DNA of 64,000 nucleotides from an uncultured Thermoleophilia bacterium (GTDB lineage Bacteria; Actinomycetota; Thermoleophilia; UBA2241). The stretch is from the NCBI GenBank assembly GCA_963735345.1, contig CAVTKL010000008.1:3283-67282 (forward strand). The letters are read 5' to 3'. Shown in pieces: positions 11,057-61,629 of this stretch (positions are counted from its first letter, which is position 1; every line of letters starts with the position of its first letter). The notes below the pieces were generated by a model. The model was not told the origin of the DNA. It searched no databases and was given only the letters and a program-made list of their open reading frames with translations. Made by a program: the position numbers and the translations under genes.

Positions 11057-11064
11057 GGGGCGCC

Positions 11065-11096: not shown

Positions 11097-11138
11097 CGGG
11101 GCAGGGATCAGCGGCCGGCTCTCCGTGAGCCGCTGCGC

Positions 11139-11369
11139 TCAGGACTTGGCTTTGCTCTTGGACGTCTTCTTCTTGGACTTCGCCTTGCCGCTCTTCTTCT
11201 TGCCGCTCTTCTTGGCGAGCACCGCCTTGCGGTCTTCGTTGAGTTGCTTCAATCCCGCGCTGCGGCCGTGGGCGCCGATGTAGGTCTGGGCGATCGCGCA
11301 CTTCTTGCAGCCCTTGCCGCAGCAGTCTTTCCACTCCTTACGGCTGAACTCGCTCGTCATGTCCGGCAT
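11139..11369 (-). CDS. Small Cys-rich protein (CCxxGCxxC motif) with poly-Lys tail
   Basis: MPDMTSEFSRKEWKDCCGKGCKKCAIAQTY...KKSGKKKSGKAKSKKKTSKSKAKS. ATG at 11369 preceded by GGGAGG. Motif resembles the Oxidored-like CCxxGCxxC domain (from memory). Confidence 0.65.
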   Translation of the reverse strand: MPDMTSEFSRKEWKDCCGKGCKKCAIAQTYIGAHGRSAGLKQLNEDRKAVLAKKSGKKKSGKAKSKKKTSKSKAKS

Positions 11370-11382
11370 TGTCGGCCTCCCG

Positions 11383-12069: not shown

Positions 12070-12805
12070 TGTACGCCTCCTTGCGCTGGACGCAGTACTC
12101 GAGGTCCGCGCGCACGACCGCGTCGACGAAGATCCCGGAGGTGTGGACGGCGTTGGGGTCGAGTTCACCGAGCGTATAGAGGTCCTCGACCTCGGCGATG
12201 GTGTGCTGCGCGCACATCGCCGCCGGCACATTGAAGTTGCGCGAGGTGCCGCGGTAGATGAGATTGCCCCACGTATCTCCCGCATGGGCGCGCACGAGGG
12301 CGACATCGCATTTGACGGCCGGTACGAGGATGTACACGCGGCCGTCGAGCTCGACGAGCTGCTTGCCCTCCTCGGCGGTCGTGCCTACTCCTGTGGGGGT
12401 GAGAAACCCGCCAAGGCCTGCGCCGCCGGCGCGCAGCATCTCGGCCAGAGTGCCTTGCGGCGTGGCCTCGACCTGCAGACGCCCCTCGTTCATGGCCCGG
12501 CCGATCTCGGGAGTCGTGCCGACGTGGCTGGCGACGATCTTCCTGACCTTGCCCATGCGCACCAGTTCCACGATGCCGCGTTCGTGGAACCCGGCATCGT
12601 TCGCGTAGATCGTCAGATCGGCGACGTCCATCCTCTTCAAGTGATCGAGCAGTGTGAGCGGGTCGCCCTGGCCGATGAAGCCGCCGACGGCGATGCTCAT
12701 TCCCGACTCGACGTGCGCCATCGCCTCGGCGACGTCGACGACTTTGTTCCTGGGCACCTTCTCACCCCATGACGGTCGGCCGCCGGACGCGCCAGATGCT
12801 ATCAC
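12062..12805 (-). CDS. 3-oxoacid/acetate CoA-transferase subunit A
   Basis: MSIAVGGFIGQGDPLTLL, TPQGTLAEMLRAGGAGLGGFLTPTG. The start may instead be GTG at 12757. Confidence 0.88.
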   Translation of the reverse strand: MIASGASGGRPSWGEKVPRNKVVDVAEAMAHVESGMSIAVGGFIGQGDPLTLLDHLKRMDVADLTIYANDAGFHERGIVELVRMGKVRKIVASHVGTTPEIGRAMNEGRLQVEATPQGTLAEMLRAGGAGLGGFLTPTGVGTTAEEGKQLVELDGRVYILVPAVKCDVALVRAHAGDTWGNLIYRGTSRNFNVPAAMCAQHTIAEVEDLYTLGELDPNAVHTSGIFVDAVVRADLEYCVQRKEAYSA

Positions 12806-12875
12806 CGCCGCCGCCGACTGTCGTTCGCGGCGCCTTCTGCGAAGCCCGTCGTTCAGCGGGCGTCGCCGGCGCGCT

Positions 12876-18194: not shown

Positions 18195-18221
18195 CAGGAA
18201 GGGCAGGTGCACGGTGCGTTC

Positions 18222-18259
18222 AGTCGCGGCGGGTGGCCCTACGGCCGCCCGCCGCGACT
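18222..18259 (+). terminator. Rho-independent-type terminator after hppA
   Basis: AGTCGCGGCGGG...CCCGCCGCGACT, a 12-bp perfect stem extendable via GGCC/GGCC. It is followed by the T-rich stretch GCTTTCGTTTCGG. Confidence 0.65.
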
Positions 18260-18390
18260 GCTTTCGTTTCGGCTTCTCGCGGCCTCTTCGCCGAACGGAT
18301 CTCATGGTTGTGCGGCCCTTCGCCCGGTGGTAACGTGAGCGCTTCGCTTGATTCCGTTCCAAGTTCCAAGGGGGAGTCCACCGCTCGACC

Positions 18391-18549
18391 ATGCGCACGA
18401 CGCAGCGGATACTGGCGGTCGTCATGGGTGTGCTTGGCCTGCTGCTCATCGTGAAAGGGACGATGGACGGCGTGTGGCCGGTCTCGGCGCAGTTGCTCGC
18501 GGGGGTTCTGTTGGTCGTGTTCGCGGTCTTGCGTTGGCGTACTCTCTGA
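18391..18549 (+). CDS. 52-aa hydrophobic peptide (two predicted TM segments), below the ORF-track cutoff
   Basis: My translation: MRTTQRILAVVMGVLGLLLIVKGTMDGVWPVSAQLLAGVLLVVFAVLRWRTL. GGGGAG lies upstream. It ends 16 nt before the permease start. Confidence 0.5.
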   Translation: MRTTQRILAVVMGVLGLLLIVKGTMDGVWPVSAQLLAGVLLVVFAVLRWRTL

Positions 18550-18565
18550 GGCTGTGAGGTAGGGC

Positions 18566-20737
18566 ATGGCACGACGCAAGCATAGGGAAGGCGAGGAGCT
18601 TCAACGAGTCCTCGGAGTCCCTGCGCTGTTCAGCACCGCGTACGGCAACGTCGGCTCGTCCATCTACTATGCCCTCGGCGTGGTGGCGGCCTCCGCCATG
18701 GGCGCCACCCCCATCGTGTTCGTCCTCACCGGTATGCTCTTCGTGACCATCGCCTGGAGCTACGCCGAGGCGACGGCGGCGTTGCCCGAGGCGGGCGGTT
18801 CCGCGAGTTTTGCGCGGCGCGCCTTCAACGAGTTCGTCAGCTTCGGCATCGGCTGGGGCCAGATGCTCGTCTACACGGCCACGATCGCCATCTCCGCCCT
18901 GTTCGTCCCTCAGTACCTGTCTGTCTTCTGGCCGATCCTCAACCATTGGCCCTACAACGCCATCGGCGGCATCGTCACGGCGGTCGCGTTGGTCGCCATC
19001 AACGTCTTCGGCATCAAGGAGGCGGCGCGCATCAACATCCTGTTGGCGCTGCTGGACCTGGCGACCCAGATCATCATCATGGCGATCGCCCTGGTCCTGC
19101 TGCTCGAGCCGACGATCCTTCTCGAACAGATCAAGTGGGGTGTCGCGCCTACCTGGACGCAGTTCCTCTACGGCCTCGCCATCGGCACCGTGGCCTACAC
19201 GGGCATCGAGACGGTGTCCAATATGGCCGAGGAAGCCACGAATCCGGGGCGGGACGTGCCGCGGGCCATCAACATGGTCATCGTCGCGGTCATCATCGTC
19301 TACATCGGCATGCCCCTCGCAGGCCTGTCGGCCATGCCGGTGCGCTCGAACACCGTGGCGATGGACCCCGCCCGGCCAGGCTTCACCGTCCCGGTGAAGG
19401 TCGCGCCGGGCGAGCCGGAAGGCACGTACGTGCTCGCCGACGACGAAGAGACCGTCGTCTACGTGCCGGTCGAGGCGATCGGCGACGAGATGTTCATCCC
19501 GGCGCAGCAGCCTCCGGAGAACGCATTGGAGGTCGTGGATGGCACCCCCGTCGCCAATCTGTACGGCACGCAGCTAGGCAGCAACTACAGCGGCGACCCT
19601 GTGCTTGGGCTGGTCCGATTCCTGCCTGAGAGCCTTGGCTGGGTCAAGGACGTGCTGGCGATCTGGGTCGGTATCCTCGCCGCCACCATCCTCGTGATCG
19701 CCACCAACGCCGGCCTCATCGGTGTCTCGCGGCTCACCTACTCATTTGGCCAGCACAACCAGTTGCCGCCTGTGCTGGGCCGCATGCACGCCCGCCGCAT
19801 GACGCCCTACGTCTCCATCATCCTGTTCGGCGCCATCGCCTGCGTGCTCATCATCCCCGGCCGGGTGACGCTCCTTGTGGACTTGTACGTCTTCGGCTCG
19901 ATGATCTCGTTCACGGCGGCCCACATCTCGGTGATCGTGCTGCGCATCAAGGAGCCGGACCTGGAGCGTCCGTGGCGCATCCCGTTCAACATCCGCGTAC
20001 GCGGCCGTCTTCTGCCCGTCACGTCGCTGATCGGCGCCGTGGGGACGTTCTGCGTCTGGATCGTGATCGTCTGGTTCCAGAGCTACAGCCGGATCATCGG
20101 CTTCTCCTGGATCATTGTCGGGCTCATCGCCTACGTCGTGTACCGCAGATCCAAGGGCTACTCCCTTACTCAGCCGGTCGACCGCCTGTACATGCCCGAG
20201 TCGATGCAGTCGGACGTCGACTACCACGAGATCCTGGTGCCGATCGTCGGCACCCGGGTCAGCGATCACATGATGGTCCTCGCCTGCCAGCTGGCGACCG
20301 AGAAGAAGTCCTCGATCGCCGGCCTCTATGTGATCGAGGTCCCTCTCAACCTGCCACTCGATGCCAGACTGACGCGCGAACGCGCCAAGGCCGACCAGGT
20401 GCTCAAGGCGGCGGCGCTCATCGCCTCGCAGTTCAAGGTCCCGTTCACGCCGCATGTTGTGGCGGCGCGCCATGCGGGCCGGGCCATCGTGGACGAAGCC
20501 GGCGTCCTGCGTTCCGAGGTCATCGTCCTCGGGACCATGCGCAAACGGCGCATCGCCGACAGGGTCTTCGGGAGGACGAGCGACTACGTGATCGACCATG
20601 CACCGTGCGAGGTTCTGCTCAACCTCGTCCCCAGTTCCTATGCCTTGGAGGGCTCCGGGCTTCCCAGTGGAGAGGGCAGCGGTTCCGCCGGCCATCCGTC
20701 CACAGGGGGTCACGCCGGCCCCTCGACGACCAAGTGA
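18566..20737 (+). CDS. APC-superfamily permease fused to a C-terminal universal stress protein (Usp) domain
   Basis: FSTAYGNVGSSIYYALG, 12+ TM segments, an ~100-aa extracytoplasmic loop, and Usp-like C-terminus ILVPIVGT...VIVLGT...VIDHAPCEVLL. Confidence 0.88.
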   Translation: MARRKHREGEELQRVLGVPALFSTAYGNVGSSIYYALGVVAASAMGATPIVFVLTGMLFVTIAWSYAEATAALPEAGGSASFARRAFNEFVSFGIGWGQMLVYTATIAISALFVPQYLSVFWPILNHWPYNAIGGIVTAVALVAINVFGIKEAARINILLALLDLATQIIIMAIALVLLLEPTILLEQIKWGVAPTWTQFLYGLAIGTVAYTGIETVSNMAEEATNPGRDVPRAINMVIVAVIIVYIGMPLAGLSAMPVRSNTVAMDPARPGFTVPVKVAPGEPEGTYVLADDEETVVYVPVEAIGDEMFIPAQQPPENALEVVDGTPVANLYGTQLGSNYSGDPVLGLVRFLPESLGWVKDVLAIWVGILAATILVIATNAGLIGVSRLTYSFGQHNQLPPVLGRMHARRMTPYVSIILFGAIACVLIIPGRVTLLVDLYVFGSMISFTAAHISVIVLRIKEPDLERPWRIPFNIRVRGRLLPVTSLIGAVGTFCVWIVIVWFQSYSRIIGFSWIIVGLIAYVVYRRSKGYSLTQPVDRLYMPESMQSDVDYHEILVPIVGTRVSDHMMVLACQLATEKKSSIAGLYVIEVPLNLPLDARLTRERAKADQVLKAAALIASQFKVPFTPHVVAARHAGRAIVDEAGVLRSEVIVLGTMRKRRIADRVFGRTSDYVIDHAPCEVLLNLVPSSYALEGSGLPSGEGSGSAGHPSTGGHAGPSTTK

Positions 20738-50208: not shown

Positions 50209-50595
50209 TCATGAGGCGGCTCTTTGCGCCGGCTTCTTCGCGGCGGTGGCGCAGGCGCTGTCGGCGTCGCTTGGGGCGCGCGGAGCAGCGAGCAAACGCT
50301 CGACGCAGTCCAGGAAGCCCCCGAGATCGCCGTCGAAGCGCTCCCAGTCGATCGAGTAGTAGGTCCGCGTGCCCTCGCTGCGCAGACGCACCAGGCCGGC
50401 GTCGCGCAGCAGGGCGAGGTGGTGCGAGACGAGGGGCTGGCTCTGGTCGAGCGGCCCCGTCATCTCGCAGACGCAACGCTCGCCACCCAGCAGGAACTCG
50501 ATGATCTGCGCGCGGATGGGGTTGGAGAAGGCCTTGAAGAACGGGACGAAATCGACCATGCTGCGGACTTCTGCCGGGTCTGTGGCGATCTTCAT
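50209..50595 (-). CDS. arsR: ArsR/SmtB-family metalloregulator with CVC As(III)-type site
   Basis: FKAFSNPIRAQIIEFLLGGERCVCEM...VSHHLALLRDAGLV. Start at aa 24 of ORF 50209..50664. Confidence 0.88.
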   Translation of the reverse strand: MKIATDPAEVRSMVDFVPFFKAFSNPIRAQIIEFLLGGERCVCEMTGPLDQSQPLVSHHLALLRDAGLVRLRSEGTRTYYSIDWERFDGDLGGFLDCVERLLAAPRAPSDADSACATAAKKPAQRAAS

Positions 50596-50596
50596 G

Positions 50597-51712
<1,116 letters not shown>

Positions 51713-51765
51713 AGCGGTGATCTCCTTGGCCGTGCCGGCGCCGGACGGACACCGAGAAGCATACA

Positions 51766-51801
51766 TTGACAAACGCTGATGGTCAAGCTAAGTTTATATA
51801 A
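51766..51801. promoter_or_regulatory. Divergent ars promoter/operator region: TTGAC-N11-GTCAA inverted repeat plus TTATATAA palindrome
   Basis: TTGACA at 51766..51771 and GTCAA at 51782..51786. TTATATAA at 51794..51801 is the most AT-rich spot I noticed in the window. A possible promoter is TTGACA-17-TAAGTT. Confidence 0.35.
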
Positions 51802-51811
51802 GTCTCACGGC

Positions 51812-52585
51812 ATGAACCGAGAAAGGCGGGAGAGCGTGAAGACCATCCAGCTCGACGAGCCCTTCGCCGTGTTCTCTGATGTGCACGGCAACCTGCCGGC
51901 GCTCGAAGCGGTCCTCTCGGACATCGAGCGCTGCGGCGTGGCCCACACGCTCTGTCTCGGAGACCTCGTGGGGTATGGTCCTTCACCGAACGAGGTCGCC
52001 CTGCTCATCCGCGATCGCGACATCCCGACGCTCATGGGCAACTACGACCAGGGCATCGGCTTCGAGACGGGCGACTGCGGCTGCGTCTACAAGACCGACG
52101 AGCAGCGCGCCGAAGGCGCGGCATCCCTCGCCTGGACGCAGACGGCCGTGAGCGACGAGGTCAAGGCCTACCTGCGCACCCTCGAGGATCACTTCGTGCT
52201 GCAGACGCCGAGCGGCGACATCCTCGCCGTGCACGGCAGCCCGCGCCGCATCAACGAGTACCTGTTCGAGGACCGGCCTGCCTCCGCCATGGGGCGCATG
52301 GCGCGCGAATACCCGTATCCGGTCATCCTTTTCGGGCACACGCACCTGCCCTATGCTCGGCAGGTCGGCGAGACCACCTTCGTGAATGTCGGCAGCGCCG
52401 GGCGTCCCAAAGACGGCGACTGGCGCGTCTGCTACGCCATCGTCGACCCCGCCCGGCTCGGCCGAGGCGAGGAACTCGTTGAGTTCGTGCGCGTCGCCTA
52501 TGACTACGCGCGGCTGCTGGCCGATATGGCGCCGACGCCGCTGATCACGAGCTTCTCCGCGCCGCCATCGTCCAGATCGGAGTGA
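51812..52585 (+). CDS. Metallophosphoesterase (YfcE/MJ0936-like)
   Basis: FSDVHGN, LGDLVGYGP, LFGHTHLP, plus an unusual GDCGCVYK insert. The start could instead be GTG ~51836. Confidence 0.82.
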   Translation: MNRERRESVKTIQLDEPFAVFSDVHGNLPALEAVLSDIERCGVAHTLCLGDLVGYGPSPNEVALLIRDRDIPTLMGNYDQGIGFETGDCGCVYKTDEQRAEGAASLAWTQTAVSDEVKAYLRTLEDHFVLQTPSGDILAVHGSPRRINEYLFEDRPASAMGRMAREYPYPVILFGHTHLPYARQVGETTFVNVGSAGRPKDGDWRVCYAIVDPARLGRGEELVEFVRVAYDYARLLADMAPTPLITSFSAPPSSRSE

Positions 52586-52592
52586 ACCGTCC

Positions 52593-53798
52593 ATGAATCA
52601 GGAGACTGTCGGCGCTGCTGCGCCCGTGGCGTTGGGAACAGAGGACGATCTGACGCCGACGTCAGCGGCGCCCATGTGTGACTGCGGCACCCCGGCCGCC
52701 GCCGTCGCGGAGCCGGCGGCCGCTGCGGATCCGGCGCCGGCGACGCCTCAGAGTCGCGCGCCGCACAAGGTGCTCGCGCGCCTGTTTGCCCGCCTGCCGC
52801 TCTGGTTGCGCGTCGGCGGCGGCGTGCTGCTCTGGGCGATCGTGTATCACTACTGGTTGCCGGTGGCGACGTGGCTCACGGAGGACGTGCTTCACCTCAC
52901 CACGGGGCGCCTCGCCTCGTCGCTTCAGTTCTTCATCTACGACACCGTCAAGGTGCTGCTGCTGCTCACCATCGTCGTCTTCGGCGTCGGCATCGTGCGC
53001 ACGTTCTTCAGCCCGCAGCGCACCCGGGCCCTGCTGCACGGCAGACGCGAGGTCACCGGCAACGTCATGGCCGCCAGCCTCGGCATCGTGACGCCGTTTT
53101 GCAGTTGCTCGGCCGTGCCCCTCTTCATCGGCTTCGTAGAGGCCGGCATTCCGCTCGGCGTCACCTTCTCGTTCCTCATCGCCGCTCCCATGGTCAATGA
53201 GATCGCCCTGGTGCTGCTCTACGGCCTGTTCGGCTGGGAGGTCGCCACGCTGTACCTCACCACGGGGCTCATCATCGCCATGGTCGCCGGCTGGGTCATC
53301 GGTCGCCTCAAGCTGGAGCGCTACGTCGAGGACTGGGTGCGCGAGATCCGCATGGGCGACGCGGTGGCCGGCGAGGAGCTCGACTGGCCGGCGCGAGTGC
53401 ACTACGCCTGGCAGGCCGTCAAGGACATCGTCGGCAAGGTGTGGCCCTACGTGGTCGCCGGTATCGCGGTCGGCGCCGTCATCCACGGCTACGTGCCCGA
53501 GAACTTCATGGCCGGCGTCATGGGCGCCGACGCCTGGTGGAGCGTGCCGGTGGCGGTGCTCGTCGGCATCCCCATGTACTCCAACGCCGCCGGCATCATC
53601 CCGATCGTCGAGGCGCTGCTCGAGAAGGGCGCGGCCCTGGGCACAGTGCTCGCCTTCATGATGGCCGTCATCGCGCTCTCGCTGCCCGAGACGATCATCC
53701 TGCGCAAAGTCCTGAAGTGGCCGCTCATCGCGACCTTCCTCGGGGTGGTCGGCGTCGGCATCATGATGGTCGGCTTCCTGTTCAACTGGATCCTGTGA
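52593..53798 (+). CDS. arsP: ArsP-like (PF03773/DUF318) permease with ~80-aa N-terminal extension
   Basis: GIVTPFCSCSAVPLFIGF, the vicinal-Cys TPFCSCS motif characteristic of ArsP/DUF318 permeases. About 8-10 TM segments. Confidence 0.8.
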   Translation: MNQETVGAAAPVALGTEDDLTPTSAAPMCDCGTPAAAVAEPAAAADPAPATPQSRAPHKVLARLFARLPLWLRVGGGVLLWAIVYHYWLPVATWLTEDVLHLTTGRLASSLQFFIYDTVKVLLLLTIVVFGVGIVRTFFSPQRTRALLHGRREVTGNVMAASLGIVTPFCSCSAVPLFIGFVEAGIPLGVTFSFLIAAPMVNEIALVLLYGLFGWEVATLYLTTGLIIAMVAGWVIGRLKLERYVEDWVREIRMGDAVAGEELDWPARVHYAWQAVKDIVGKVWPYVVAGIAVGAVIHGYVPENFMAGVMGADAWWSVPVAVLVGIPMYSNAAGIIPIVEALLEKGAALGTVLAFMMAVIALSLPETIILRKVLKWPLIATFLGVVGVGIMMVGFLFNWIL

Positions 53799-53802
53799 AG
53801 GG

Positions 53803-54186
53803 GTGGGCGTGGAAGCACTGACGACGTTCACCGAGCCCACGGAGTGCGAACGCGCGACGACGCTCCTCGAGCGCCTGGGCATCGCGCACGCGGTGATCTC
53901 CCCCGAACCCGGATACGCACACGTGGGGTGCCCGGCGCTCGTGCTCGCCGACGAGGAGAAGGGGACCTTCCTGGCGAGCGGAGGAGCGGACGTGATGTGC
54001 GCCGGCTGGGTCGACTACCGGCCGCCGGCGCATGACGTTCCCGACCGACGCTCCGCGCGAGTTCGCGGAGGACATCGTGGGTCAGGTGGCCGTCGTGGTG
54101 CTCGCCCCGTGTGTCGCCGACCTCGATCGCCTGCGTCTCACCGCGCATCTTCTCCGGCGACGTCGGCGAGGCTCTGCCGTACCTGA
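53803..54186 (+). CDS. DUF3343 (putative Se/S carrier-like) protein; only ~53,803/53,809-54,031 looks coding, and the ORF lacks a stop there
   Basis: TFTEPTECERATTLLERLGIAHAVISPEPGYAHVGCPALVL fits the DUF3343 pattern. Third-position GC falls sharply after 54,030 while the +1 frame becomes protein-like. Confidence 0.6.
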   Translation: MGVEALTTFTEPTECERATTLLERLGIAHAVISPEPGYAHVGCPALVLADEEKGTFLASGGADVMCAGWVDYRPPAHDVPDRRSARVRGGHRGSGGRRGARPVCRRPRSPASHRASSPATSARLCRT

Positions 54187-54608
54187 ACGGGGTGCTGCCC
54201 CAGGCCTCTTACGTCGCCACATTGCCCGTGCTCACCTTCATGGACGGTCACCGCATGGTGTCGCTGTACCGGGACCGCATCGCCGTTGCCAAAGCTGACG
54301 ACATCGTCGACGCCTGGGCGAGCCTCGAGCGCCTGCGCTGCCTGGTGAACGACACGTGGTCGCGCCGTGCCGAGATCACCCCGTCGCTGGAGCTGCACCG
54401 CAGGCCGCCGGCCCTGGAGATCTACAAGCGTCTGCCGGGGACGAACTGCAAGGGCTGCGGTGAGCCCACCTGCACCGCCTTCGCCTGGGCCGTGTGGCGC
54501 GGAGGGGCCGACATCCATGCCTGCCGCCCCGTCTTCAGCGGTGAGCGCGGCGACCTCAAGGAGGCCCTGCTTTCCGTCTGCTCCGGCCTGGGGCTGGTGG
54601 ACGAATGA
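54032..54608 (+). pseudogene. PF04060-type Fe-S cluster protein; frame break near 54,140-54,150
   Basis: Frame 2 from ATG 54032 reads MTFPTDAPREFAEDIVGQVAVVVLAPCVADLDRLRLTAH. Frame 0 continues IFSGDVGEALPYLNGVL...LPGTNCKGCGEPTCTAFA...IHACRP (CxxCxxxxC...C Fe-S motif). Confidence 0.6.
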
Positions 54609-54612
54609 GGGC

Positions 54613-55548
54613 TCAGCTCAGCAGCCCCTCGATGATCAGGTCGGTCGCCTCGTCTTCTGTCAGTCCGCGGCTCATGAGCGTCTGCAGTTGCTTGGAGTCG
54701 ACCGAGCCGATCGCGGCCTCGTGGGTGATGTGGGCCAGCGGGTGGCTCACCTCGACGATGGGCACGGCTTTGGCGACCGCCCGGTCCTGGACGATCTCCT
54801 TGCAGTCGACGTGCCCGCGCGCGTAGGGCGCTGAGGCAGTCAGCGTGTTGTACACCTCGGCGCGGGCGTCGCCGCGCAGGGCCAGGTAGGACTGCAGCAC
54901 GGCGCGAGCGCCTTCGCCGTTGAGGCGCCCGGTCTCGCGGATCGTCACCGTGTCATGGCCGCGGGCGATGATGCGCGTGATCATCTCGAGCGTGCTGCGC
55001 GCGTCGCAGTCGGCCTCGTAGTCGAAGTCGATGACGCCCGCGCGACCCTTGACCAGTTCGAACTCGGTGCGGAAGCGCGCGCCCTCGCCGATGTGGACCA
55101 GCGTCTTGGGCACCACGAGCACGCCGCCGTCGGCGCCGTGCAGGTGGCGCTCGAAGTATTCGTAGGTCGCGCCGGGGGCGATGTTCACCACGGCGTCCAT
55201 CTTGTGAGTGATGTCGATGGCGTTGGGGAAGGTGCAGTGGGCCTGCACAGAGGCAGACGAGTCGGCCTCGACATCGACCTTCATGACGATGTGCTGCAGG
55301 CCGTCGGTGGGCAGCATGCCGAAGCACAGGTGCACCGGGTTGGCGATCCTGACGCCCTCGTGCAGGCGGATGTGCGCCTCGATGCCGTCGTCGAGCTGCT
55401 CAACGTCGACGTCGAGCCCGGGGACCAGGTGCGCGCCCACCACCTCGTTGCCGCTGACCTCAAGGTGCGCGACGTCGTCGCCGCTGAAGTGCGCGCCGTA
55501 GTCGCCCAGCGACTCGAGCAGCGCGCGTGCCGTGGCGACGTCGCTCAT
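54613..55548 (-). CDS. Short SufB/SufD-family Fe-S assembly protein (minimal SUF-like, SmsB-type)
   Basis: 311 aa, beta-helix-type repeats, C-terminal EAAIGSVDSKQLQTLMSRGLTEDEATDLII typical of SufB/D. Start overlaps the sufC-like stop. Confidence 0.8.
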   Translation of the reverse strand: MSDVATARALLESLGDYGAHFSGDDVAHLEVSGNEVVGAHLVPGLDVDVEQLDDGIEAHIRLHEGVRIANPVHLCFGMLPTDGLQHIVMKVDVEADSSASVQAHCTFPNAIDITHKMDAVVNIAPGATYEYFERHLHGADGGVLVVPKTLVHIGEGARFRTEFELVKGRAGVIDFDYEADCDARSTLEMITRIIARGHDTVTIRETGRLNGEGARAVLQSYLALRGDARAEVYNTLTASAPYARGHVDCKEIVQDRAVAKAVPIVEVSHPLAHITHEAAIGSVDSKQLQTLMSRGLTEDEATDLIIEGLLS

Positions 55549-56285
55549 ACCGGCATCATCTCTTCCGGACCCGGCACGTTCTCGTGGTCGCAGGGGATGC
55601 AATGGCCGGCGAAGTAGCCGCTGATCTTGTCGACTACGCCCTTGTCGAGGATGCGGCCGTTGCAGAGGAGAAAGGCGTGCTCGGCGTGCTCGAGTACCGT
55701 CATGCTGTGAGTGATCATGACGACGGTGGCGCCCATCGTCTTGAAGTCCGCAAGGACGTCGAAGATGCGTTCCAGCGCCTCGACGTCGATACCCGAGTCT
55801 GGTTCGTCCATGAGCACGAGGCGGGGCTCCATGGCCAGGATCGAGGCCAGTTCCACGCGTTTGCGCTCGCCGCCGGAGAGGGTCTTGTCGACCTTGCGTG
55901 TGAGATAGCGGTCGGGGTCGAGGCCGACGCGCTCCAGCACCTCGCGGACCTTCTCCCGACTCTTGTCCTTGGCGCCGGCGGCGATGAAGCGGTCCATGCG
56001 CAGGCCCTCGAAGCGGGCCGGCTCCTGCCAGGCGAGCGTGATGCCGCGCCGCGCCCGTTCGTCGACCGACACGCCGCGCAGCGATGCGCCGTCGAACAGG
56101 ATGTCGCCGCCGTGCTGCGTGTAGCCCGGCAGGCCCATGATGGTGCTGGCGAGCGTGGACTTGCCGGCCCCGTTCGGGCCGATCAGGGCGTGGACGCGTC
56201 CCTCCCAGAACTCGGCGCTGAGGCCGTTGAGGATGCGCTTGCCGCCAAGCTCGAGCGTGACGTCGTGCAGTTCGAGGATCGCCAT
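55545..56285 (-). CDS. sufC: SufC-like Fe-S assembly ABC ATPase (SmsC-type)
   Basis: GPNGAGKSTL, LSGGERKRVEL, LVLMDEPDSGID, VMITHS. The C-terminal CIPCDHE is unusual. Confidence 0.85.
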   Translation of the reverse strand: MAILELHDVTLELGGKRILNGLSAEFWEGRVHALIGPNGAGKSTLASTIMGLPGYTQHGGDILFDGASLRGVSVDERARRGITLAWQEPARFEGLRMDRFIAAGAKDKSREKVREVLERVGLDPDRYLTRKVDKTLSGGERKRVELASILAMEPRLVLMDEPDSGIDVEALERIFDVLADFKTMGATVVMITHSMTVLEHAEHAFLLCNGRILDKGVVDKISGYFAGHCIPCDHENVPGPEEMMPV

Positions 56286-56340
56286 GCGGGGACCACGACC
56301 TTTCCTGGCGGGCGCGGGGAGGCGCTCCCGCCCTCTTACT

Positions 56341-56805
56341 CTACTCCGGGTAGCACCTGATGAGCCGCTTGCAGACGGCCTGCGGATGGCAGCCCACGGC
56401 ATACTGCTCGCATGCGGCGCAGTCGGCGAGCAGCAGGTCTCGCTCGGCGCCCTCGACGAGCACCGCGTAGCCGTTCGCGGCGAAGAATCCGGGGGCGCGC
56501 GCCGCCGCGTAGAGGATCGAGTGGCCACTGCGCAGCGCCTCCTCCTCGAGTGCGGCCAGGAGACGCCTGCCAAGGCCCTGGCCGCGGTGCGCGGGCGCGA
56601 CAGCCAGACGCTCGACGATGGGGAGTCCCGCAAGCTCGCCGAGCGCCACGGTGCCCACCATGCAGTCGCCTTCGAACGCCCCCCACAGGGCTTGCGGGGG
56701 CGGAGGATTCTCCGATCCTTCGAGATGCGCCTCTCTGGCGAGGGCGAGGGCGGCGGTAAGGTCGTCGCTGCGTCTGATGTCGGGAGAGTCCGCCTGGCGA
56801 GTCAT
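56341..56805 (-). CDS. GNAT N-acetyltransferase, ArsN2-like, with C-terminal Cys cluster
   Basis: LAVAPAHRGQGLGRRLL (acetyl-CoA motif). Tail CAACEQYAVGCHPQAVCKRLIRC. The ArsN2 assignment is inferred from context and loose similarity recalled from memory. Confidence 0.65.
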   Translation of the reverse strand: MTRQADSPDIRRSDDLTAALALAREAHLEGSENPPPPQALWGAFEGDCMVGTVALGELAGLPIVERLAVAPAHRGQGLGRRLLAALEEEALRSGHSILYAAARAPGFFAANGYAVLVEGAERDLLLADCAACEQYAVGCHPQAVCKRLIRCYPE

Positions 56806-56836
56806 CGCCCGTACTCTACCGCTTTCGGCCGGCCGA

Positions 56837-56864
56837 TTGCAGTCTGCGGCGCAGGCATTATACT
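56837..56864 (+). promoter_or_regulatory. Candidate SigA-type promoter (TTGCAG-16 nt-TATACT) for the DUF134-NifX pair
   Basis: Read directly from sequence. It is followed by palindrome GCATATGC and RBS GAGGA, 5 nt before ATG 56896. Confidence 0.4.
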
Positions 56865-56895
56865 GGGCATATGCTAAGAACCTTTGAGGATGAGC

Positions 56896-57432
56896 ATGCC
56901 GCGCCCGCCGATTGAACGCGCCGTGGGCGGCGTGCCGCGGGTGACGCTGTTCAAACCGGCCGGCGTGCCTGGCCGTGATCTCGAGCAGTTGTCCCTAGCC
57001 GTCGACGAACTCGAAGCGATCCGTCTCGTGGATCTGGAGGGCTTGAGTCACGAGCAGGCGGCAGCCGCCATGGGTGTGTCGCGGCAGACGATCGGTCGCG
57101 TCTTGGAACGGGGAAGAGCCAAAGTCGCGGAGGCGCTGGTGGGGGGCAAGGCGATCCTCATCGGCGGCGGTCAGTACCGAGTCGAGCCGCGGCAGCTCTG
57201 TTGCGCCGCGTGCGGGGCGATTTGGGCGGCCGTGCCGGACGCGGATCTCCCCGCCGAGTGTCCCACGTGCGGGTCGGCCGATCTGGGAACCTGCTGGGAT
57301 CCGGCCGGGCGCTGCGGGAGAGGTCACGGGGGCCAAGGCGGCGGGGGCCGGGGCTGCGGCGCCGGCGGCGCCGAGTCTGCCGGCCCCGGCTGTCAGGGGC
57401 GCGGCAACAGAAGGGGGCGCGGCAGGCCGTGA
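56896..57432 (+). CDS. DUF134 (UPF0251) putative DNA-binding protein with C-terminal zinc ribbon and Gly/Arg-rich tail
   Basis: MPRPPIERAV...FKPAGVP...DELEAIRLVDLEGLSHEQAAAAMGVSRQTIGRVLERGRAKVAEAL. Then CCAACG...CPTCG, and the tail GRGHGGQGGGGRGCGAGG...RGNRRGRGRP. Confidence 0.82.
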   Translation: MPRPPIERAVGGVPRVTLFKPAGVPGRDLEQLSLAVDELEAIRLVDLEGLSHEQAAAAMGVSRQTIGRVLERGRAKVAEALVGGKAILIGGGQYRVEPRQLCCAACGAIWAAVPDADLPAECPTCGSADLGTCWDPAGRCGRGHGGQGGGGRGCGAGGAESAGPGCQGRGNRRGRGRP

Positions 57433-57495
57433 GGCGCGCCGCGACCCGCATCCACACAGTATCGATCGATTGACCAGGAACGGAGTCTGATCTGC

Positions 57496-57879
57496 ATGAG
57501 TGATCCAACAGGAACGACCGTACGGATAGCGATCCCCTCAGAAGCTCCCGGTGGCCTCACGGCGCGGCGGTCCGGGCACTTCGGACGCTGCGAGTGCTTC
57601 ACCGTCGTCGAAATGCTCGACGGTGTCATGGTGAGCGTCGAGGTCGTGCACAACGCGCCGCACGAAGAGGGCGGCTGTATGCGCCCGGTGCTGATGCTCG
57701 CCGAGCACAACGTGACCGCGATCGTCGTCGACGGTATCGGCGGCCGCCCGCTGATGGGCTTCAACCAGGTCGGCATCGAGGTCCTTGCCGGGACGGGCGC
57801 GGACGTCGAGACGGCCGTGGCAGCCTACATCGAGGGCATCCTGCCGGTCGTCGGGCTCGAAGGGGCCTGCCAGCACTGA
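57496..57879 (+). CDS. NifB/NifX-family (dinitrogenase FeMo-cofactor-binding fold) protein
   Basis: RIAIPSE...SGHFGRCECFTVVEM...AIVVDGIGGRPLMGFNQVGIEVL. Confidence 0.85.
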   Translation: MSDPTGTTVRIAIPSEAPGGLTARRSGHFGRCECFTVVEMLDGVMVSVEVVHNAPHEEGGCMRPVLMLAEHNVTAIVVDGIGGRPLMGFNQVGIEVLAGTGADVETAVAAYIEGILPVVGLEGACQH

Positions 57880-57906
57880 GGCCGCGTCATCCCAGACCGC
57901 GCGGTA

Positions 57907-58770
57907 TCAGCCGCGCGGTTTGGTCGCGCGAACGAACCCGCTGACGAGCTGCACGCCGTCGGGCATGGGCGGCGCTCCGCACATCGAGTTCGCCGCAGAG
58001 CCGTCGTAGACGTTGGTCACCTCGACGCTGGGGTCGGCGAAGCCTGCCCGGCGCAGCCGCTCGAGGAAGTCCTGCTCCTCGAGGGCGCCGGAGATGCAGG
58101 CCGACCAAGCTTCGATATCGTGCATCAGTTCGTCCGGCACCAGGCTCAGGTCGCCGCGGAAGAGGATGTCGCTGATCGCAAACCGGCCGCCCGGCTTGAG
58201 GACGCGGAAGGCCTCGGCCAGGGCGCGGTCCTTGTCGGTGGACAGGTTGACCACGCAGTTGCTGATGATCACGTCGACCGAGGCGGTCGGCAGTGGGATG
58301 CTCTCGATCTCGCCCTTGAGGAACTCGACGTTGTCGACCCCGGCCGTGCGCTGGTTGTCGCGCGCCAGGGCGAGCATCTCGTCGGTCATGTCGATGCCGT
58401 AGGCCTTGCCGGTGGGGCCGACGCGACGAGCCGAGAGCAGCACGTCGATGCCGCCGCCGCTGCCCAGGTCGAGTACGACCTCGCCGGGGCGCAGGTCGGC
58501 GAGTGCGGTGGGGTTGCCGCAGCCGAGACTGGCGAGGACGGCCGCGGCGGGCAGCTCCCTGGTCTCGTCGACCGCGTAGAGGCCTTGGGCGATCTCATCT
58601 TGGGGGATGACCGGCGCGGCGGGTGCGCAACTGCAGCCGCAGCCGCACGACTGGGGCTGGCTCGCCGCCACGGCGCGTTCGGCGTAGTGCTCGCGGATGC
58701 GGGTCTTGAGGTCCGTGTCGTTCGGCAACTGCTCCATGACATCCCTTCTCGTGGTCAAATCAAAGGCCAT
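57907..58770 (-). CDS. arsM: Arsenite S-adenosylmethionine methyltransferase
   Basis: REHYAERA, Cys-rich [19 protein letters not shown] motif [19 protein letters not shown]. The start may be the downstream Met (MEQLPND). Confidence 0.9.
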
Positions 58771-58843
58771 GCATGCGATGATACAGTGACGAAAGTTGAT
58801 GTCAACCCCAAATCAAAGGAAGTTGTGGTATCGTCGTGCGGCG

Positions 58844-59248
58844 ATGGATGAGACGGCTTGCAGCGATACGAGAGACAGGGCGGCGCAGAAATGCTGCCCC
58901 GCGCCCGAGGAGGCCTCAGTGCTGCGCCTGGCGCTCATCGCCAAGGCCTTGAGCGATCCGATCCGACTCGGGATGCTCGACCTCATGGCTCAGGGACGCT
59001 CCTGCTGCGGCCTGCCTGACCCGGCGGAGCGGGGAGTGCCCGGCGCCGAGGGGCCGAGCGGCATCTGCGTCTGCGAGTTCCAGGAGCACTTCGGCATCGG
59101 CCAATCCAAGGTCTCGTATCACCTGCGCGTGCTCAAGGAAGCCGGCCTTGTCAGCGAGGAGACGCGCGGCAAATGGAACTTCTACGCCGTTGAGCGTGAA
59201 GTGGCGGCCGACGCGCTCCAGACGTTGCACGCGATCCTGCGCGTCTGA
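58844..59248 (+). CDS. arsR: ArsR/SmtB-family regulator (second copy) with extra Cys pairs
   Basis: KALSDPIRLGMLDLM...CVCEF...VSYHLRVLKEAGLV. Additional CC pairs (KCCPAP, SCCGLP). Confidence 0.85.
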   Translation: MDETACSDTRDRAAQKCCPAPEEASVLRLALIAKALSDPIRLGMLDLMAQGRSCCGLPDPAERGVPGAEGPSGICVCEFQEHFGIGQSKVSYHLRVLKEAGLVSEETRGKWNFYAVEREVAADALQTLHAILRV

Positions 59249-59362
59249 GTGCTCCGTCGCTCCTTCCCGCCTGCCGTGTCGCGGATCCAGCGTGGGCAGG
59301 TCTGCGTCCGGCGGCAAACGGGTAGCGTTCCGGGCAGTCGGAGGGATTCCCGGGGAGGCGCC

Positions 59363-60691
59363 ATGACGGATGTGGACGTGCTGGTGATCGGAACGGGCGC
59401 CGCCGCGCAGAACGTGGTTTCGCGCTGCGCCGCCGCGGGGCTGAGCGTGGCTGTGGTCGACAGACTGCCGTATGGCGGCACGTGCGCACGCCGCGGCTGC
59501 AACCCCAAGAAAGTGCTGTTGGCGGCCGCCGAAGCCGTGGCCCGCGGCGAGATGCTGGCGGGCGCCGGTCTGCGCGATGGCGTCGCCATCGATTGGCCGG
59601 CGCTCATGGCCCGCAAGCGCTCCTTCGTTGATCCGGTGGCCGAACGCATCGAGGCCTGGCTGGGCGGCGCCGGCGCGCAAACGCTCCACGGCGAGGCGCG
59701 GGTGGTGGGCGCCGACGAAGTGGAGGTCGGCGGTCGGCGCCTGAAGGCCGCGCACATCGTCGTCGCGACGGGTGCCCGACCGATGGCCCTGGGCATCGAG
59801 GGCGAGGACCTCGTCACCATCAGCGACGACTTCCTCGAACTCGACGATCTGCCGCCGCGCGTGGTGTTCATCGGCGGCGGCTACATCTCGTTCGAGTTCG
59901 CCGGGCTCGCCCGCCGCGCCGGCGCCGAGGTGACGATCGTGCATCGATCGGCGCGCGTGCTCAAGGGCTTCGACGCCGAGCTCGCGGCGGCGCTGGTCGC
60001 GCGTTACCGTGAGCTCGGCATCCGGGTCCTCACCGACGCGCCCGTCACCCGCGTGCGCCGTGAGGGGCAGGCATTCGTCGTGGAGAGCGCGGCCGGCGCG
60101 ATCGTCGCCGACCTCGTCGTGCACGGCGCCGGGCGCGTCGCGGATATCGACCGGCTCGGCCTCGAGAACGCCGGCGTGACGTTCGGCCGCCACGGCGTGC
60201 TGGTGGACGACCATCTGCGCAGCGTCAGCAACCCGCGCTTCTGGGCGGCCGGCGACGCCGCCGCCCTCGGCGCGCCGCTCACACCCATCGCCTCCCGCCA
60301 GGGCAGCATCGTCGCGGCCGGCATCCTCGGCGAGGAGGCCAGCTTCGACGGCCGCGCGACTCCGAGCGTGGTCTTCAGCGACCCGCCGCTGGCGGCCGTC
60401 GGGATGCGCGCCGAGGAGGCTGCCGAACGTGGCGCTGCGGTGACGGTGCAGTACAGCGACATGAGTGCCTGGTTCACGCAGCGTCGGGTCGGCCAGACGC
60501 ATGCGGGCGCCAAGGTCATCAGCGATGCGGCAAGCGGCCGCGTCCTCGGGGCCCATCTGCTGGGCGTCAACGCTGAGGAGTTGATCAACGTGTTCGCTCT
60601 GGCCGTGCGGCACGGACTCACCGTCAGCGACCTGCGGGCCGTGGAGTGGGCCTACCCCACGGCCGGCTCGGACATCCCGAGCATGGTGTAG
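59363..60691 (+). CDS. Class-I pyridine nucleotide-disulfide oxidoreductase (glutathione/mycothione/mercuric-reductase-like)
   Basis: ATG 59363 after GGGGAGG. VLVIGTGAAA, redox CxxxxC in GGTCARRGCNPKK, second Rossmann FIGGGYISFEFA, dimerisation domain. Confidence 0.85.
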   Translation: MTDVDVLVIGTGAAAQNVVSRCAAAGLSVAVVDRLPYGGTCARRGCNPKKVLLAAAEAVARGEMLAGAGLRDGVAIDWPALMARKRSFVDPVAERIEAWLGGAGAQTLHGEARVVGADEVEVGGRRLKAAHIVVATGARPMALGIEGEDLVTISDDFLELDDLPPRVVFIGGGYISFEFAGLARRAGAEVTIVHRSARVLKGFDAELAAALVARYRELGIRVLTDAPVTRVRREGQAFVVESAAGAIVADLVVHGAGRVADIDRLGLENAGVTFGRHGVLVDDHLRSVSNPRFWAAGDAAALGAPLTPIASRQGSIVAAGILGEEASFDGRATPSVVFSDPPLAAVGMRAEEAAERGAAVTVQYSDMSAWFTQRRVGQTHAGAKVISDAASGRVLGAHLLGVNAEELINVFALAVRHGLTVSDLRAVEWAYPTAGSDIPSMV

Positions 60692-60716
60692 GGGATCGAC
60701 GACGCTGGGACTCGGT

Positions 60717-61060
60717 TCAGTCGCGCGTCGTGAAGGCGCACCGCAGGAGATCGTCAGATGGGATGCCGCCGGACCCGGCGGGAGGGAAGTAGGAGCGTCA
60801 GCCGAGGCCGTAGTCGGTGCGTCGCTCGGCCTCAGGCTGCACGTCGTGGCCGCGCACGCGCACACTGGGGGAGCCGACGAAACGCAAGGCTTCGGCGGCT
60901 CTCTTGGGTGTCGACGACGCGTTTCGATGAGGTCCACCCCCACCCCGAGTTCCGCTGCCACGCGGCGGACGGCGTCGCGCGCGGCCTGCCAGTTGCCGCA
61001 GCCGGAGGTGTGCAGGATCTCGACGGGGACGAGACCGGGGGCGCCTTCTGTGTGGTTCAC
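60717..61060 (-). pseudogene. Thioredoxin-fold protein coupled to pncA. It has a -1 frame break at ~60,895-60,925 and an in-frame TGA (60,798-60,800) at a Cys-type position, so it is a candidate selenoprotein or a decayed gene
   Basis: GTG 61060 overlaps the pncA stop (GTGA). Peptide: VNHTEGAPGLVPVEILHTSGCGNWQAARDAVRRVAAELGVGVDLIETR / (frame -1) TPKRAAEALRFVGSPSVRVRGHDVQPEAERRTDYGLG-TGA-RSYFPPAGSGGIPSDDLLRCAFTTRD-TGA. Confidence 0.5.
60766..60781 (-). other. Candidate bacterial SECIS hairpin (CCGCCG-GGUC-CGGCGG)
   Basis: 6-bp GC stem with a GGUC tetraloop. The stem begins 16 nt after the UGA at 60,800..60,798. Confidence 0.4.
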
Positions 61061-61629
61061 TCGGGGACATCGGCCCCGGCCTCGCGCATCGCCGCCCGGG
61101 CTTGGCGCCCGCCCTCGGGCGTCAGCGGACGGGCGCCGTCCTCGATCAGCGCGACGGCGAACCCCTCACGCCGCGCGTCCAGCACGGTGGCCAGCACGCA
61201 CACGTCCTCGGCCAATCCGCCGACCCACAGACGCGTGATGCCTCTGGATCGCAGATGGTGGGCCAGACCCGTCTCGTCGAACGCCGAGTTCTGATCCTGA
61301 TCGAAGCGCACGCCCTTACTGACGATCACGGCGGAGTCGGGCACGTCGAGAGCGGGATGAAAGCCGGCGCCATGGCTGTCCTGCAAGCAGTGCGGCGGCC
61401 AGGGTCCGCCGTTCTCCACGAAGCTGGGATGCTCCAGGGGATGCCAGTCACGCGAGACGTACACGGGCACGTCGCGCGCCAGCGCGGCGGCGATCCAGCG
61501 GTTGAGGACGGGGACCACCGCGTCACCGTTCTCGATCGCCAGGGCGCCGCCCGAACAGAAGTCGTTCTGCACGTCGATCACGAGCACGATATCGCCGGTC
61601 GCGAGTGCTTCTCGCAGATCGGTCACCAT
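61057..61629 (-). CDS. pncA: Nicotinamidase/pyrazinamidase (isochorismatase family)
   Basis: LVIDVQNDFC, VSRDWHP, catalytic Cys context GGLAEDVCVLAT. Confidence 0.9.
   Translation of the reverse strand: MVTDLREALATGDIVLVIDVQNDFCSGGALAIENGDAVVPVLNRWIAAALARDVPVYVSRDWHPLEHPSFVENGGPWPPHCLQDSHGAGFHPALDVPDSAVIVSKGVRFDQDQNSAFDETGLAHHLRSRGITRLWVGGLAEDVCVLATVLDARREGFAVALIEDGARPLTPEGGRQARAAMREAGADVPE

Follow-up and report, generated by a model that had tools for sequence, protein, structure and literature searches.

A probable selenocysteine codon in a DF family gene that carries three insertions as sequenced, in an uncultured Thermoleophilia bacterium

In a 64,000 nt stretch of DNA from an uncultured Thermoleophilia bacterium (hereafter the window), a small open reading frame on the minus strand ends at a TGA codon, beyond which the same frame remains open. 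The question raised by this locus is whether the UGA terminates translation or is recoded to selenocysteine (Sec), as was proposed in a preliminary description made from the sequence of the window. The elements on which that proposal was founded could be verified: the frame ends ...RTDYGLG-TGA at 60800..60798, then reads RSYFPPAGSGGIPSDDLLRCAFTTRD up to a second TGA at 60719..60717, and a perfect hairpin, CCGCCG-GGTC-CGGCGG, begins exactly 16 nt past the first of these codons (Table 1). Taken alone, the UGA, the extension and the hairpin do not go beyond chance. Twenty-six stop-free codons at 68% G+C are, in our judgement, unremarkable on their own, TGA is the stop codon of 29 of the 34 genes in the window, and the hairpin folds at -11.4 kcal/mol with z = -0.35, 78 of 200 dinucleotide shuffles folding equally well or better. 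As this shuffle control was not significant, comparative tests were used, and the locus owes its significance to the other loci with which it was compared.

Table 1. Coordinates of the DF family gene, its elements and its neighbours in the window
Feature	Position	Strand	Remarks
DF family (seleno)protein gene	60717..61070	-	Ancestral ATG at 61070 to true stop TGA 60719-60717; orthologues in the syntenic loci L001-L008
Conceptual product, three inserted bases removed			MSPSEPHRGAPGLVPVEILHTSGCGNWQ...RTDYGLG-U-RSYFPPAGSGGIPSDDLLRCAFTTRD
N-terminal redox Cys codon TGC, motif SG-C-GNW	60998..61000	-	Not in the frame of the ATG here
In-frame TGA, Sec codon of the family	60798..60800	-	Cys in aligned Cys-type homologues
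26-codon extension after the UGA, RSYFPPAGSGGIPSDDLLRCAFTTRD	60720..60797	-	Corresponds by homology to the strand/helix region at the C-terminus of the Cys forms
SECIS-type hairpin CCGCCG-GGUC-CGGCGG	60766..60781	-	Loop 60775-60772; UGA to apical loop 22 nt
TGA serving as true stop of the full-length selenoprotein	60717..60719	-	Same stop position in L001-L009
Insertion 1, extra A (AGA-A-GGC)	61046..61047	-	Gap in L001, L006 and L008; the ancestral frame shifts here
Insertion 2, extra C (ACG-C-GTC)	60919	-	Relative to all relatives
Insertion 3, extra A/G (GAG-A-GCC)	60899..60900	-	Beyond here the frame is again that of ATG 61070
14-nt overlap (ATGTCCCCGAGTGA) of the DF start codon with the end of the pncA-like gene	61057..61070	-	
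pncA-like nicotinamidase (isochorismatase family)	61057..61629	-	Upstream, overlapping; PF00857 8.5e-33; PRK11609 below cut-off
Pyridine-nucleotide disulfide oxidoreductase, group-1 flavoprotein	59363..60691	+	Convergent; Pyr_redox_2, Pyr_redox, Pyr_redox_dim
ArsR regulator	58796-59248	+	
ArsM-like methyltransferase	57907-58770	-	

The gene had been put forward as a selenoprotein candidate; it is not a new one, as the family proves to be covered already by NF049942, 'DF family (seleno)protein', a curated NCBIfam subfamily_domain model of 96 positions with a curated cut-off of 70 bits. When the inserted bases are removed and U is read as C, the product scores 97.1 bits over profile positions 1-96 of 96 (a first-draft frame correction gave 94.5 bits); truncating the corrected product at the UGA lowers this to 77.0 bits over positions 1-73 only, and the ORF as sequenced, matching positions 40-73 only, reaches 37.9 bits and falls below the cut-off. 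The U or C is position 74 of the model, directly after D[YF]GLG, and the model is common to the Sec forms and to the Cys forms P0050, P0051 and P0107; the window copy differs from it by three +1 insertions. The DF family is hence already known, and the window locus is a copy of a catalogued selenoprotein gene. No second DF paralogue was found in the window, and a literature search on the DF family found no paper describing it.

The codon at issue was compared across 84 family loci, 21 of Sec type (TGA) and 63 of Cys type. The codon following D[YF]GLG is TGA in 21/84 loci and TGC or TGT in 63/84, with TAA or TAG in none; the stop-containing loci thus have TGA at this position in 21 cases out of 21. 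The window reads TDYGLG-TGA-RSY, which agrees with the family pattern of Sec or Cys after D[YF]GLG followed by R-x-[YF]. An alignment of the conceptual protein places the UGA in a column occupied by Cys in all 63 Cys-form loci, opposite the invariant cysteine of the motif GL[STGA]-C-R-x-[YF], much as the preliminary description had supposed. Cys-form proteins number in the thousands, where the in-frame TGA/Cys criterion for selenoproteins asks for at least two homologues. The identical TGA is present in 20 loci besides that of the window, some of them, Thermodesulfobacteriota included, at only about 50-60% protein identity. A position near the N-terminus, in the motif G-C-[GP]-x-[WHY], is likewise Cys or Sec in 83 of the 84 loci, the exception (L023) being truncated at that end, and in four loci both redox positions are encoded by TGA; this fits the suggestion that the Sec pairs with the N-terminal Cys.

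The sequence beyond the UGA is conserved as part of the protein. About 49 close database homologues (57-89% identity) have all been called as ending ...D[YF]GLG. The 26-codon extension nevertheless corresponds by homology to the C-terminal part of the Cys forms, taking up positions 74-96 of NF049942 and adding about 20 bits; its motif, RSYFPPAGSGG.PS.ELL..AL, is conserved, and both its length and its sequence are conserved in L001, L006, L008 and L009.

Conservation of the hairpin in orthologous loci, which the proposal had called for, was likewise borne out: all Sec (TGA) forms have a hairpin with 5 bp or more, 12-19 nt after the UGA, with the apical loop at 16-22 nt, whilst the hairpin register differs between subgroups. 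The apical loop of bacterial SECIS elements is reported to lie 16-37 nt from the UGA (PMC10778597), a range that includes the 22 nt found in the window. Among the 21 Sec-form loci are 12 distinct hairpin sequences, at least four different stem sequences and a GG in the hairpin loop in 19 cases; stem and loop variants include CCGCCG/GGUC, CCGGA/GGA, GCCGGCC/AGGAC (in a Desulfarculus MAG) and CGAGGC/AGGUC (in a Thermodesulfobacteriota genome). The Cys forms, which mostly lack such a hairpin, served as the control; counting pairs in hairpins picked for each sequence would be circular. Strong hairpins with GG in the loop are found in 15/21 Sec forms and 5/63 Cys forms (Fisher p = 4e-8), or 3/17 when only Cys forms of at least 70% G+C are considered (p = 0.0013), although both p-values overstate the evidence because the Sec-form loci are phylogenetically non-independent. 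Synonymous sites in the stem are also frozen, with a single codon used at each of positions +6 to +9 (P-A-G-S) and an identical codon at +10 (G) in 11 of 12 sequences, the mean major-codon fraction of the other four-fold codons being 0.60. Searches with Rfam covariance models returned no SECIS match, either over the whole window or over 60680-60860 at E <= 10; the only hits were wrong-strand noise, and tRNA-Sec was not among them. In the comparative tests, however, the hairpin acts like a bacterial SECIS, and binding of SelB is predicted. Among the features used in PMC1976440 to recognise selenoprotein genes, the DF family has an in-frame TGA, homologues with Cys, several distinct TGA-bearing sequences and apical-loop Gs.

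As in bacterial SECIS elements generally, the DF stem-loop lies within the ORF, immediately 3' to the UGA, and the apical-loop Gs are conserved across the DF family too. The GGUC loop in the window is identical to the apical loop of the Escherichia coli fdhF SECIS. In the latter the minimal helix, with its bulged U, begins 11 nt past the UGA, whereas the stem in the window is a perfect 6-bp G/C helix with no bulged U and a 16-nt spacer; other DF members have GGA, AGGAC or CCUGGU in place of the fdhF GGUC. The SelB of this lineage may differ in its requirements from the fdhF type.

Were the UGA an ordinary stop, the gene would encode an 89-residue protein ending GLG, and the hairpin would be a terminator or a chance GC-rich palindrome. 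Such an account is in keeping with the prevalence of TGA among stop codons in the window, with the ending of all homologues at GLG by gene callers and with a hairpin no more stable than shuffled sequence. It sits poorly with the conservation of the 26 downstream codons as protein, with the restriction of the codon to TGA wherever it is not Cys, with the lack of a T run after the hairpin and with the retention of the hairpin on different stems in distant lineages, and is judged very unlikely. Still harder to credit is a nonsense mutation private to this copy, from TGC to TGA, which would belong to the decay that also brought the frameshifts and involve no selenocysteine: the window copy is otherwise damaged and one base change would suffice, but the recurrence of the TGA in the 20 other loci, as far away as Thermodesulfobacteriota, and the intact frames of the closest relatives make this extremely improbable. 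For the family, the interpretation of the UGA as a Sec codon served by a SECIS appears right on the strength of the TGA/Cys pairing, the extension and the hairpin, and it is considered very probable that the window locus is a Sec-type orthologue of the small, probably thioredoxin-fold DF family, with its UGA so recoded.

Neither the 64-kb window nor the 10 kb flanking the Sec-type loci examined contained a selA, selB, selD or tRNA-Sec gene. ARAGORN returned no tRNA-Sec from the window and 20 Sec-type loci, a 93-nt 'tRNA-Ala' in L015 being set aside as it was without Rfam support, and tblastn hits of E. coli SelA, SelB and SelD were confined to a Cys-form locus from Streptosporangium and to prfC-like GTPases. 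Hence the decoding of Sec in this genome stands as a prediction.

Whether this particular copy is functional is a separate matter. The preliminary description had noted a single -1 frame break upstream of the UGA; there are instead three +1 insertions relative to all relatives, which put codons 9-57 out of frame. This segment includes the partner cysteine, which is in frame in every relative but not in the window copy, so the gene as sequenced cannot encode a functional protein. An additional frameshift suspected in a CoA-transferase region at 11-12 kb was rejected, subunit B being intact.

The insertions may be real mutations, in which case the gene would be a recently inactivated pseudogene with the UGA, the SECIS hairpin and the extension as intact relics, or local assembly or consensus errors, in which case the gene would be intact in the organism and encode a working selenoprotein. 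The accuracy of the surrounding assembly argues for the former: the rest of the window appears correctly assembled, with about 45 genes giving full-length domain matches and no other frame error seen, all other indels of lengths not divisible by three in a 6.4 kb alignment to L001 are intergenic, and random errors would not be expected all to land in one 270-nt gene. Two window-specific substitutions, R110C and L112F, also fall in the conserved C-terminal ..L..AL helix. However, three insertions and no deletions within 150 nt would be unusual for the decay of a bacterial gene, whilst consensus errors are favoured by the events being all +1, clustered and at or just before a GG doublet; the environmental contig L006, which is 95% identical, shows that many 1-nt indels are possible in assemblies of this lineage. 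The other requirements for function are all conserved, the start codon, the pncA overlap, the UGA, the hairpin and the true stop all being untouched, and the lineage-specific substitutions (4 synonymous to 7 nonsynonymous) resemble those of the intact copies L001 (6:6) and L006 (5:16), without sign of relaxed selection. Nor was a second contig with the triple-insertion allele found: no exact match was returned for the product of the ORF as sequenced, of pncA or of the reductase, a gapped DNA pattern run over metagenome contigs gave none, and a protein-seeded metagenome scan yielded no additional contig. The choice between a very recently inactivated gene and one that is intact but misread in the local consensus is therefore about evenly balanced, real mutation being given not quite an even chance and consensus error a probability somewhat under one half.

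The fold of the protein bears on how the Sec might be used. Against Pfam the conceptual protein matched no family at E <= 0.01, and DUF2703, Thioredoxin_3 and KdpC were rejected as identities, since they matched only below threshold. The AlphaFold2 model of the Cys form P0050 has a pLDDT of 94.4, and its top 50 PDB matches in Foldseek are nearly all thioredoxins, glutaredoxins, mycoredoxins and ArsD, albeit weak ones (E of about 0.01 and above, TM 0.35-0.52); the DF sequence profile matches thioredoxin 1fo5 at E = 4e-4. The family is accordingly modelled as sharing the beta-alpha-beta-alpha-beta-beta-alpha core of thioredoxin- and glutaredoxin-like proteins (MJ0307, 1fo5; MTH895, 1nho; thioredoxin; mycoredoxin; ArsD), together with a conserved GSP (cis-Pro-like) loop and an N-terminal Cys that begins helix 1. 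Unlike these proteins, however, it has no CxxC, and the second redox residue lies past strand 4 in a family-specific insertion. There is some likeness to DUF2703 (PF10865), whose members occur in actinobacterial ars clusters, a name given to a Cys-form homologue in one database source, although the window protein scores 13.7 bits and the Cys forms 12.4-18.3 bits against a gathering threshold of 23.6. Both are small proteins of thioredoxin fold, a putative one in DF, adjoining a flavoprotein oxidoreductase and ars genes, as in the DUF2703-arsO pair of the ars cluster of Rhodococcus aetherivorans BCP1 (PMC6514093), but DUF2703 is described with a CXXC motif, whereas DF proteins have a single N-terminal Cys and a distant C-terminal Cys or Sec.

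The preliminary description had coupled the gene to pncA, and the 14-nt overlap is indeed present both here and in L001-L007; the coupling is restricted to these closest relatives, however, and other Sec-type loci adjoin arsenic genes. These are the more widespread neighbours of DF: Sec forms recur beside ArsM, ArsR and ACR3, and of 20 Sec-type loci, 8 have ArsM no more than 6 kb from DF, as found with queries from the window's own lineage. In the window, the ArsM and ArsR genes lie at the edge of an ars island reaching back to about 50.2 kb. The adjacent oxidoreductase, for which no NCBIfam equivalog was found at its cut-off, is kept next to DF in L001-L006 and L012 and is a possible reductase partner. 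A nearby gene previously likened to DUF3343 could not be substantiated, the ORF at 53803-54186 being without a Pfam match at E <= 0.01.

We infer a dependence on SelB, a pairing of Cys with Sec, a link to arsenic and a partner reductase. In an intact gene, the UGA would be recoded to selenocysteine when the hairpin within the ORF, whose apical loop lies 22 nt further on, recruits SelB carrying Sec-tRNA(Sec), and translation would run on through 26 further codons to the real stop. The Sec, in D[YF]GLG-U-R-x-Y, would most likely be joined as a selenenylsulfide redox pair to the single Cys of the N-terminus (G-C-G-N-W). This Cys appears to occupy the position at which the thioredoxin CxxC motif starts. 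To judge from the gene neighbourhood, the DF protein probably serves as a reductant in the adjoining module for arsenic detoxification and, once oxidised, is regenerated by the flavoprotein disulfide reductase next to it. A more specific version, considered doubtful at present, would make DF a redox component that depends on selenium and is dedicated to arsenic detoxification: a Cys-Sec thioredoxin-fold protein, Sec-Sec in some Thermoleophilia, that provides ArsM-type methylation or related ars enzymes with reducing equivalents and is recycled by the same reductase. If true, this version would constitute a direct, genetically encoded link between selenium and arsenic, of which no description was found in the literature searched.

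These results also have implications for annotation. Gene callers and public protein sets truncate the family at the UGA, the 49 or so homologues being listed as proteins of 80-99 residues ending GLG. The recoded UGA, the SECIS hairpin and the Cys partner had been called correctly from raw sequence. As a curated NCBI model covers the family, a standard annotation pipeline would name the gene, and the window copy should be annotated as frameshifted or else checked against the reads. Some DF homologues are misnamed 'K+-transporting ATPase c subunit'.

On the minus strand of the window, the small DF ORF ends at ...RTDYGLG-TGA, beyond which the frame reads RSYFPPAGSGGIPSDDLLRCAFTTRD up to a second TGA, with a perfect palindrome lying between the two. 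The preliminary description, which had drawn attention to these features as signs of a candidate selenoprotein, proved accurate when the coordinates were re-read. Taken alone, they are within chance expectation. The hairpin has a folding energy of -11.4 kcal/mol (z = -0.35), with 78 of 200 dinucleotide shuffles folding as well or better; TGA is the ordinary stop codon in 29 of 34 window genes; and, in our judgement, 26 codons without a stop are unremarkable at the window's G+C content of 68%. An Rfam search of the window and the DF region found nothing relevant to the hairpin.

Features of the DF gene and the ars island in the window
Feature	Position	Strand	Detail
ArsR	50212-50667
ACR3	50600-51787
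Metallophosphoesterase			in 50212-59248, listed between ACR3 and ArsP
ArsP permease	52545-53798
PF04060 Fe-S protein gene	54111-54608
SufBD-like and SufC-like proteins	54613-56801
DUF134			in 50212-59248, listed between SufC-like and NifB/X-like
NifB/X-like protein	57433-57879
ArsM	57907-58770
Second ArsR	58796-59248
Second TGA	60719-60717	minus
Palindrome	60781-60766	minus	CCGCCG-GGTC-CGGCGG, 16 nt 3' of first TGA
First TGA	60800-60798	minus
Insertion 3	60900/60899	minus	extra A/G, GAG-A-GCC
Insertion 2	60919	minus	extra C, ACG-C-GTC
Insertion 1	61047/61046	minus	extra A, AGA-A-GGC

The window was compared with eight syntenic orthologous loci (L001-L008) and 80 further family loci from GTDB species genomes (L009-L088). 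The aligned codon is TGA in 21 loci, counting the window, and TGC or TGT in 63; TAA and TAG occur in none. The TGA forms are carried by Thermoleophilia and Actinomycetota MAGs, a Phycisphaerae-labelled MAG, a Desulfarculus MAG (L063) and a Thermodesulfobacteriota genome (L077), and the Cys forms by Rubrobacter, Streptomyces, Nonomuraea, Acidobacteriota, Chloroflexota and others. In L001, L006, L008 and L009 the frame after the TGA has exactly 26 open codons, reading RSYFPPAGSGG[IT]PSDELLR.AL...D-stop. With this codon distribution, the conserved extension and the hairpins, the selenocysteine and SECIS reading first offered for the window appears right at the level of the family, which, judged by its sequences, would qualify under the field's criteria for calling a bacterial selenoprotein family (PMC1976440).

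In all TGA forms the UGA is followed by a hairpin with a stem of 5 bp or more, which starts 12-19 nt downstream and has its apical loop 16-22 nt from the UGA, inside the bacterial SECIS range of 16-37 nt (PMC10778597). The stems are not the same between lineages: the window group has CCGCCG-GGUC-CGGCGG, a second Thermoleophilia group CCGGA-GGA-UCCGG with an extended bulged stem, L063 GCCGGCC-AGGAC-GGCCGGC and L077 CGAGGC-AGGUC-GCCUCG, and the loop contains GG in 19 of the 21. As a control, the identical search was run on the Cys forms. Strong GG-loop hairpins were found in 15/21 Sec forms (median best-hairpin energy -10.7 kcal/mol) as against 5/63 Cys forms (-2.1 kcal/mol; Fisher p = 4e-8) and 3/17 Cys forms of at least 70% G+C (0 kcal/mol; p = 0.0013), both p-values being optimistic because the Sec loci are mutually related. 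Synonymous sites give independent support: among 12 sequences of the window subgroup, P-A-G-S at +6 to +9 is encoded by one invariant codon per residue and G at +10 by the same codon in 11, the mean major-codon fraction at upstream four-fold degenerate codons being 0.60. In a four-way alignment the stretch from ACCGACTAC... across the UGA to ...CCATCTGACGA is nearly invariant, including in L008, whose DF gene is only 80% identical overall. From these comparisons we conclude that the hairpin is a probable SECIS element, and infer that it binds SelB.

The only tRNA gene in the 64-kb window is for Phe, with no tRNA-Sec; SelA, SelB and SelD were absent from the Pfam annotation of its ~45 ORFs, and tblastn with the E. 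coli proteins returned only prfC-like GTPase similarity. None of these genes was found in the 10-kb flanks of 20 Sec-type loci. The Cys-type DF gene of L025 (Streptosporangium sp. NPDC087985) has homologues of selA (44% identity to E. coli) and selB (41%) ~8 kb downstream, at 18138-20020.

Alignment with L001, L006 and L008 reveals three single-base insertions in the window DF gene. These sum to +3, and therefore ATG 61070 to TGA 60798 is still one open frame; nevertheless, codons 9-57, including the Cys codon at 61000-60998, are out of frame, and the copy is frame-broken as sequenced. The chances seem about even that the insertions are real mutations. In favour of this, all other indels of lengths not divisible by three in the 6.4-kb alignment with L001 (91% identity) are intergenic, and ~45 other window genes have full-length domain matches, which shows a generally accurate assembly. 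A local assembly or consensus error in an intact gene is equally credible, given three insertions of the same type inside 150 nt and unremarkable substitutions (4 synonymous to 7 nonsynonymous; L001 6:6, L006 5:16). The insertions have left the start codon, the overlap with pncA, the UGA, the SECIS and the stop intact, a pattern that points either to a very recent change or to an error in the local consensus. No second contig with the triple-insertion allele was found by product look-ups, a metagenome contig pattern search or a protein-seeded metagenome scan.

The post-UGA helix carries window-specific E106D, R110C and L112F substitutions (corrected codons; window 60725-60763), the last of which changes the almost invariant L in the ..L..AL motif of the family. 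Outside coding sequence, the window has, relative to L001, a 34-nt insertion at 63111, between prfC and NAPRTase, and several 1-nt indels at 59256-59355, between the reductase and ArsR. L006 (ENA contig_68617) shares 95% identity with the window but seems to come from an error-prone assembly, since many single-base indels relative to the window (7069-14206 and 18662-20270) fragment prfC, NAPRTase, ArsR and ArsM; its DF gene is intact.

Pfam gave no match to the conceptual protein at E <= 0.01. The curated NCBIfam model NF049942, "DF family (seleno)protein" (cut-off 70 bits), matches the product corrected for the insertions, with U read as C, at 97.1 bits over all 96 positions, compared with 77.0 bits over positions 1-73 when it is ended at the UGA; hence the 26 post-UGA codons are part of the protein. 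The ORF as sequenced scores 37.9 bits over positions 40-73 only. A search among 5.8 billion proteins gave ~49 close homologues at 57-89% identity, each with its annotated end at ...D[YF]GLG, and a few distant full-length ones with GL[ST]-C-R-x-Y...DGR.SP.PD...R.AL; database entries of Sec forms are all cut at the UGA. A second search with one Cys form gave 3751 relatives, named "thioredoxin family protein", "DUF2703" or hypothetical. The family is already known as NF049942 and its novelty is low; interest remains in its uncharacterised function, arsenic-gene association and two-Sec variants. Several shortened proteins (P0003, P0036, P0046) bear the JGI label "K+-transporting ATPase c subunit", a misannotation whose sole basis is sub-threshold KdpC similarity (18.8 bits; cut-off 24.1).

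An AlphaFold2 model of the Cys form P0050 (pLDDT 94.4) has a beta-alpha-beta-alpha-beta-beta core and a C-terminal helix. Its PDB neighbours are weak (E ~0.01 and above, TM 0.35-0.52), nearly all thioredoxins, glutaredoxins, mycoredoxin and ArsD; a sequence profile matches thioredoxin 1fo5 at E = 4e-4. There is no CxxC motif: the family has a single Cys where helix 1 begins (83 of 84 loci), along with the C-terminal Cys or Sec. TGA stands at both positions in four loci (L010, L012, L013, L014), whose products would contain two selenocysteines. The lone N-terminal Cys and these four loci support the putative Cys-Sec redox pair suggested in the preliminary description. The four, from Thermoleophilia or related, read HTPG-U-GRW at the N-terminal position (L010 gene at about 220-516), with a hairpin GGCGGCG-CGUGA-CGCCGUY 14 nt after that TGA.

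The DF gene lies at the edge of an ars island (~50.2 to 59.2 kb), convergent with a flavoprotein disulfide reductase gene. It overlaps pncA by 14 nt; the suggested coupling is lineage-specific, the linkage with pncA and NAPRTase being limited to the nearest relatives. In 8/20 Sec-type loci ArsM lies no more than 6 kb from DF, and ArsR, ACR3 or ArsP is nearby in several more. An actinobacterial precedent for this setting is the DUF2703-arsO pair of a Rhodococcus ars cluster (PMC6514093), where a flavoprotein gene accompanies that of a small thioredoxin-fold protein. From these neighbours and that precedent, our working inference is that the DF protein may be a reductant for arsenic detoxification. 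A reported DUF3343 neighbour was unconfirmed; its likely source is an ORF at 53803-54186 (+) with no Pfam match at E <= 0.01. This ORF (MGVEALTTFTEPTECERATTLLERLGIAHAVISPEPGYAHVGCPALV...) overlaps the start of the PF04060 gene. Elsewhere, an ORF at 3-1733 (-), running past the window start, combines 4Fe-4S ferredoxin, Fe-only hydrogenase large-subunit C-terminal, PF04060 Fe-S and HisKA domains, the predicted architecture of a hydrogenase-like sensor histidine kinase.
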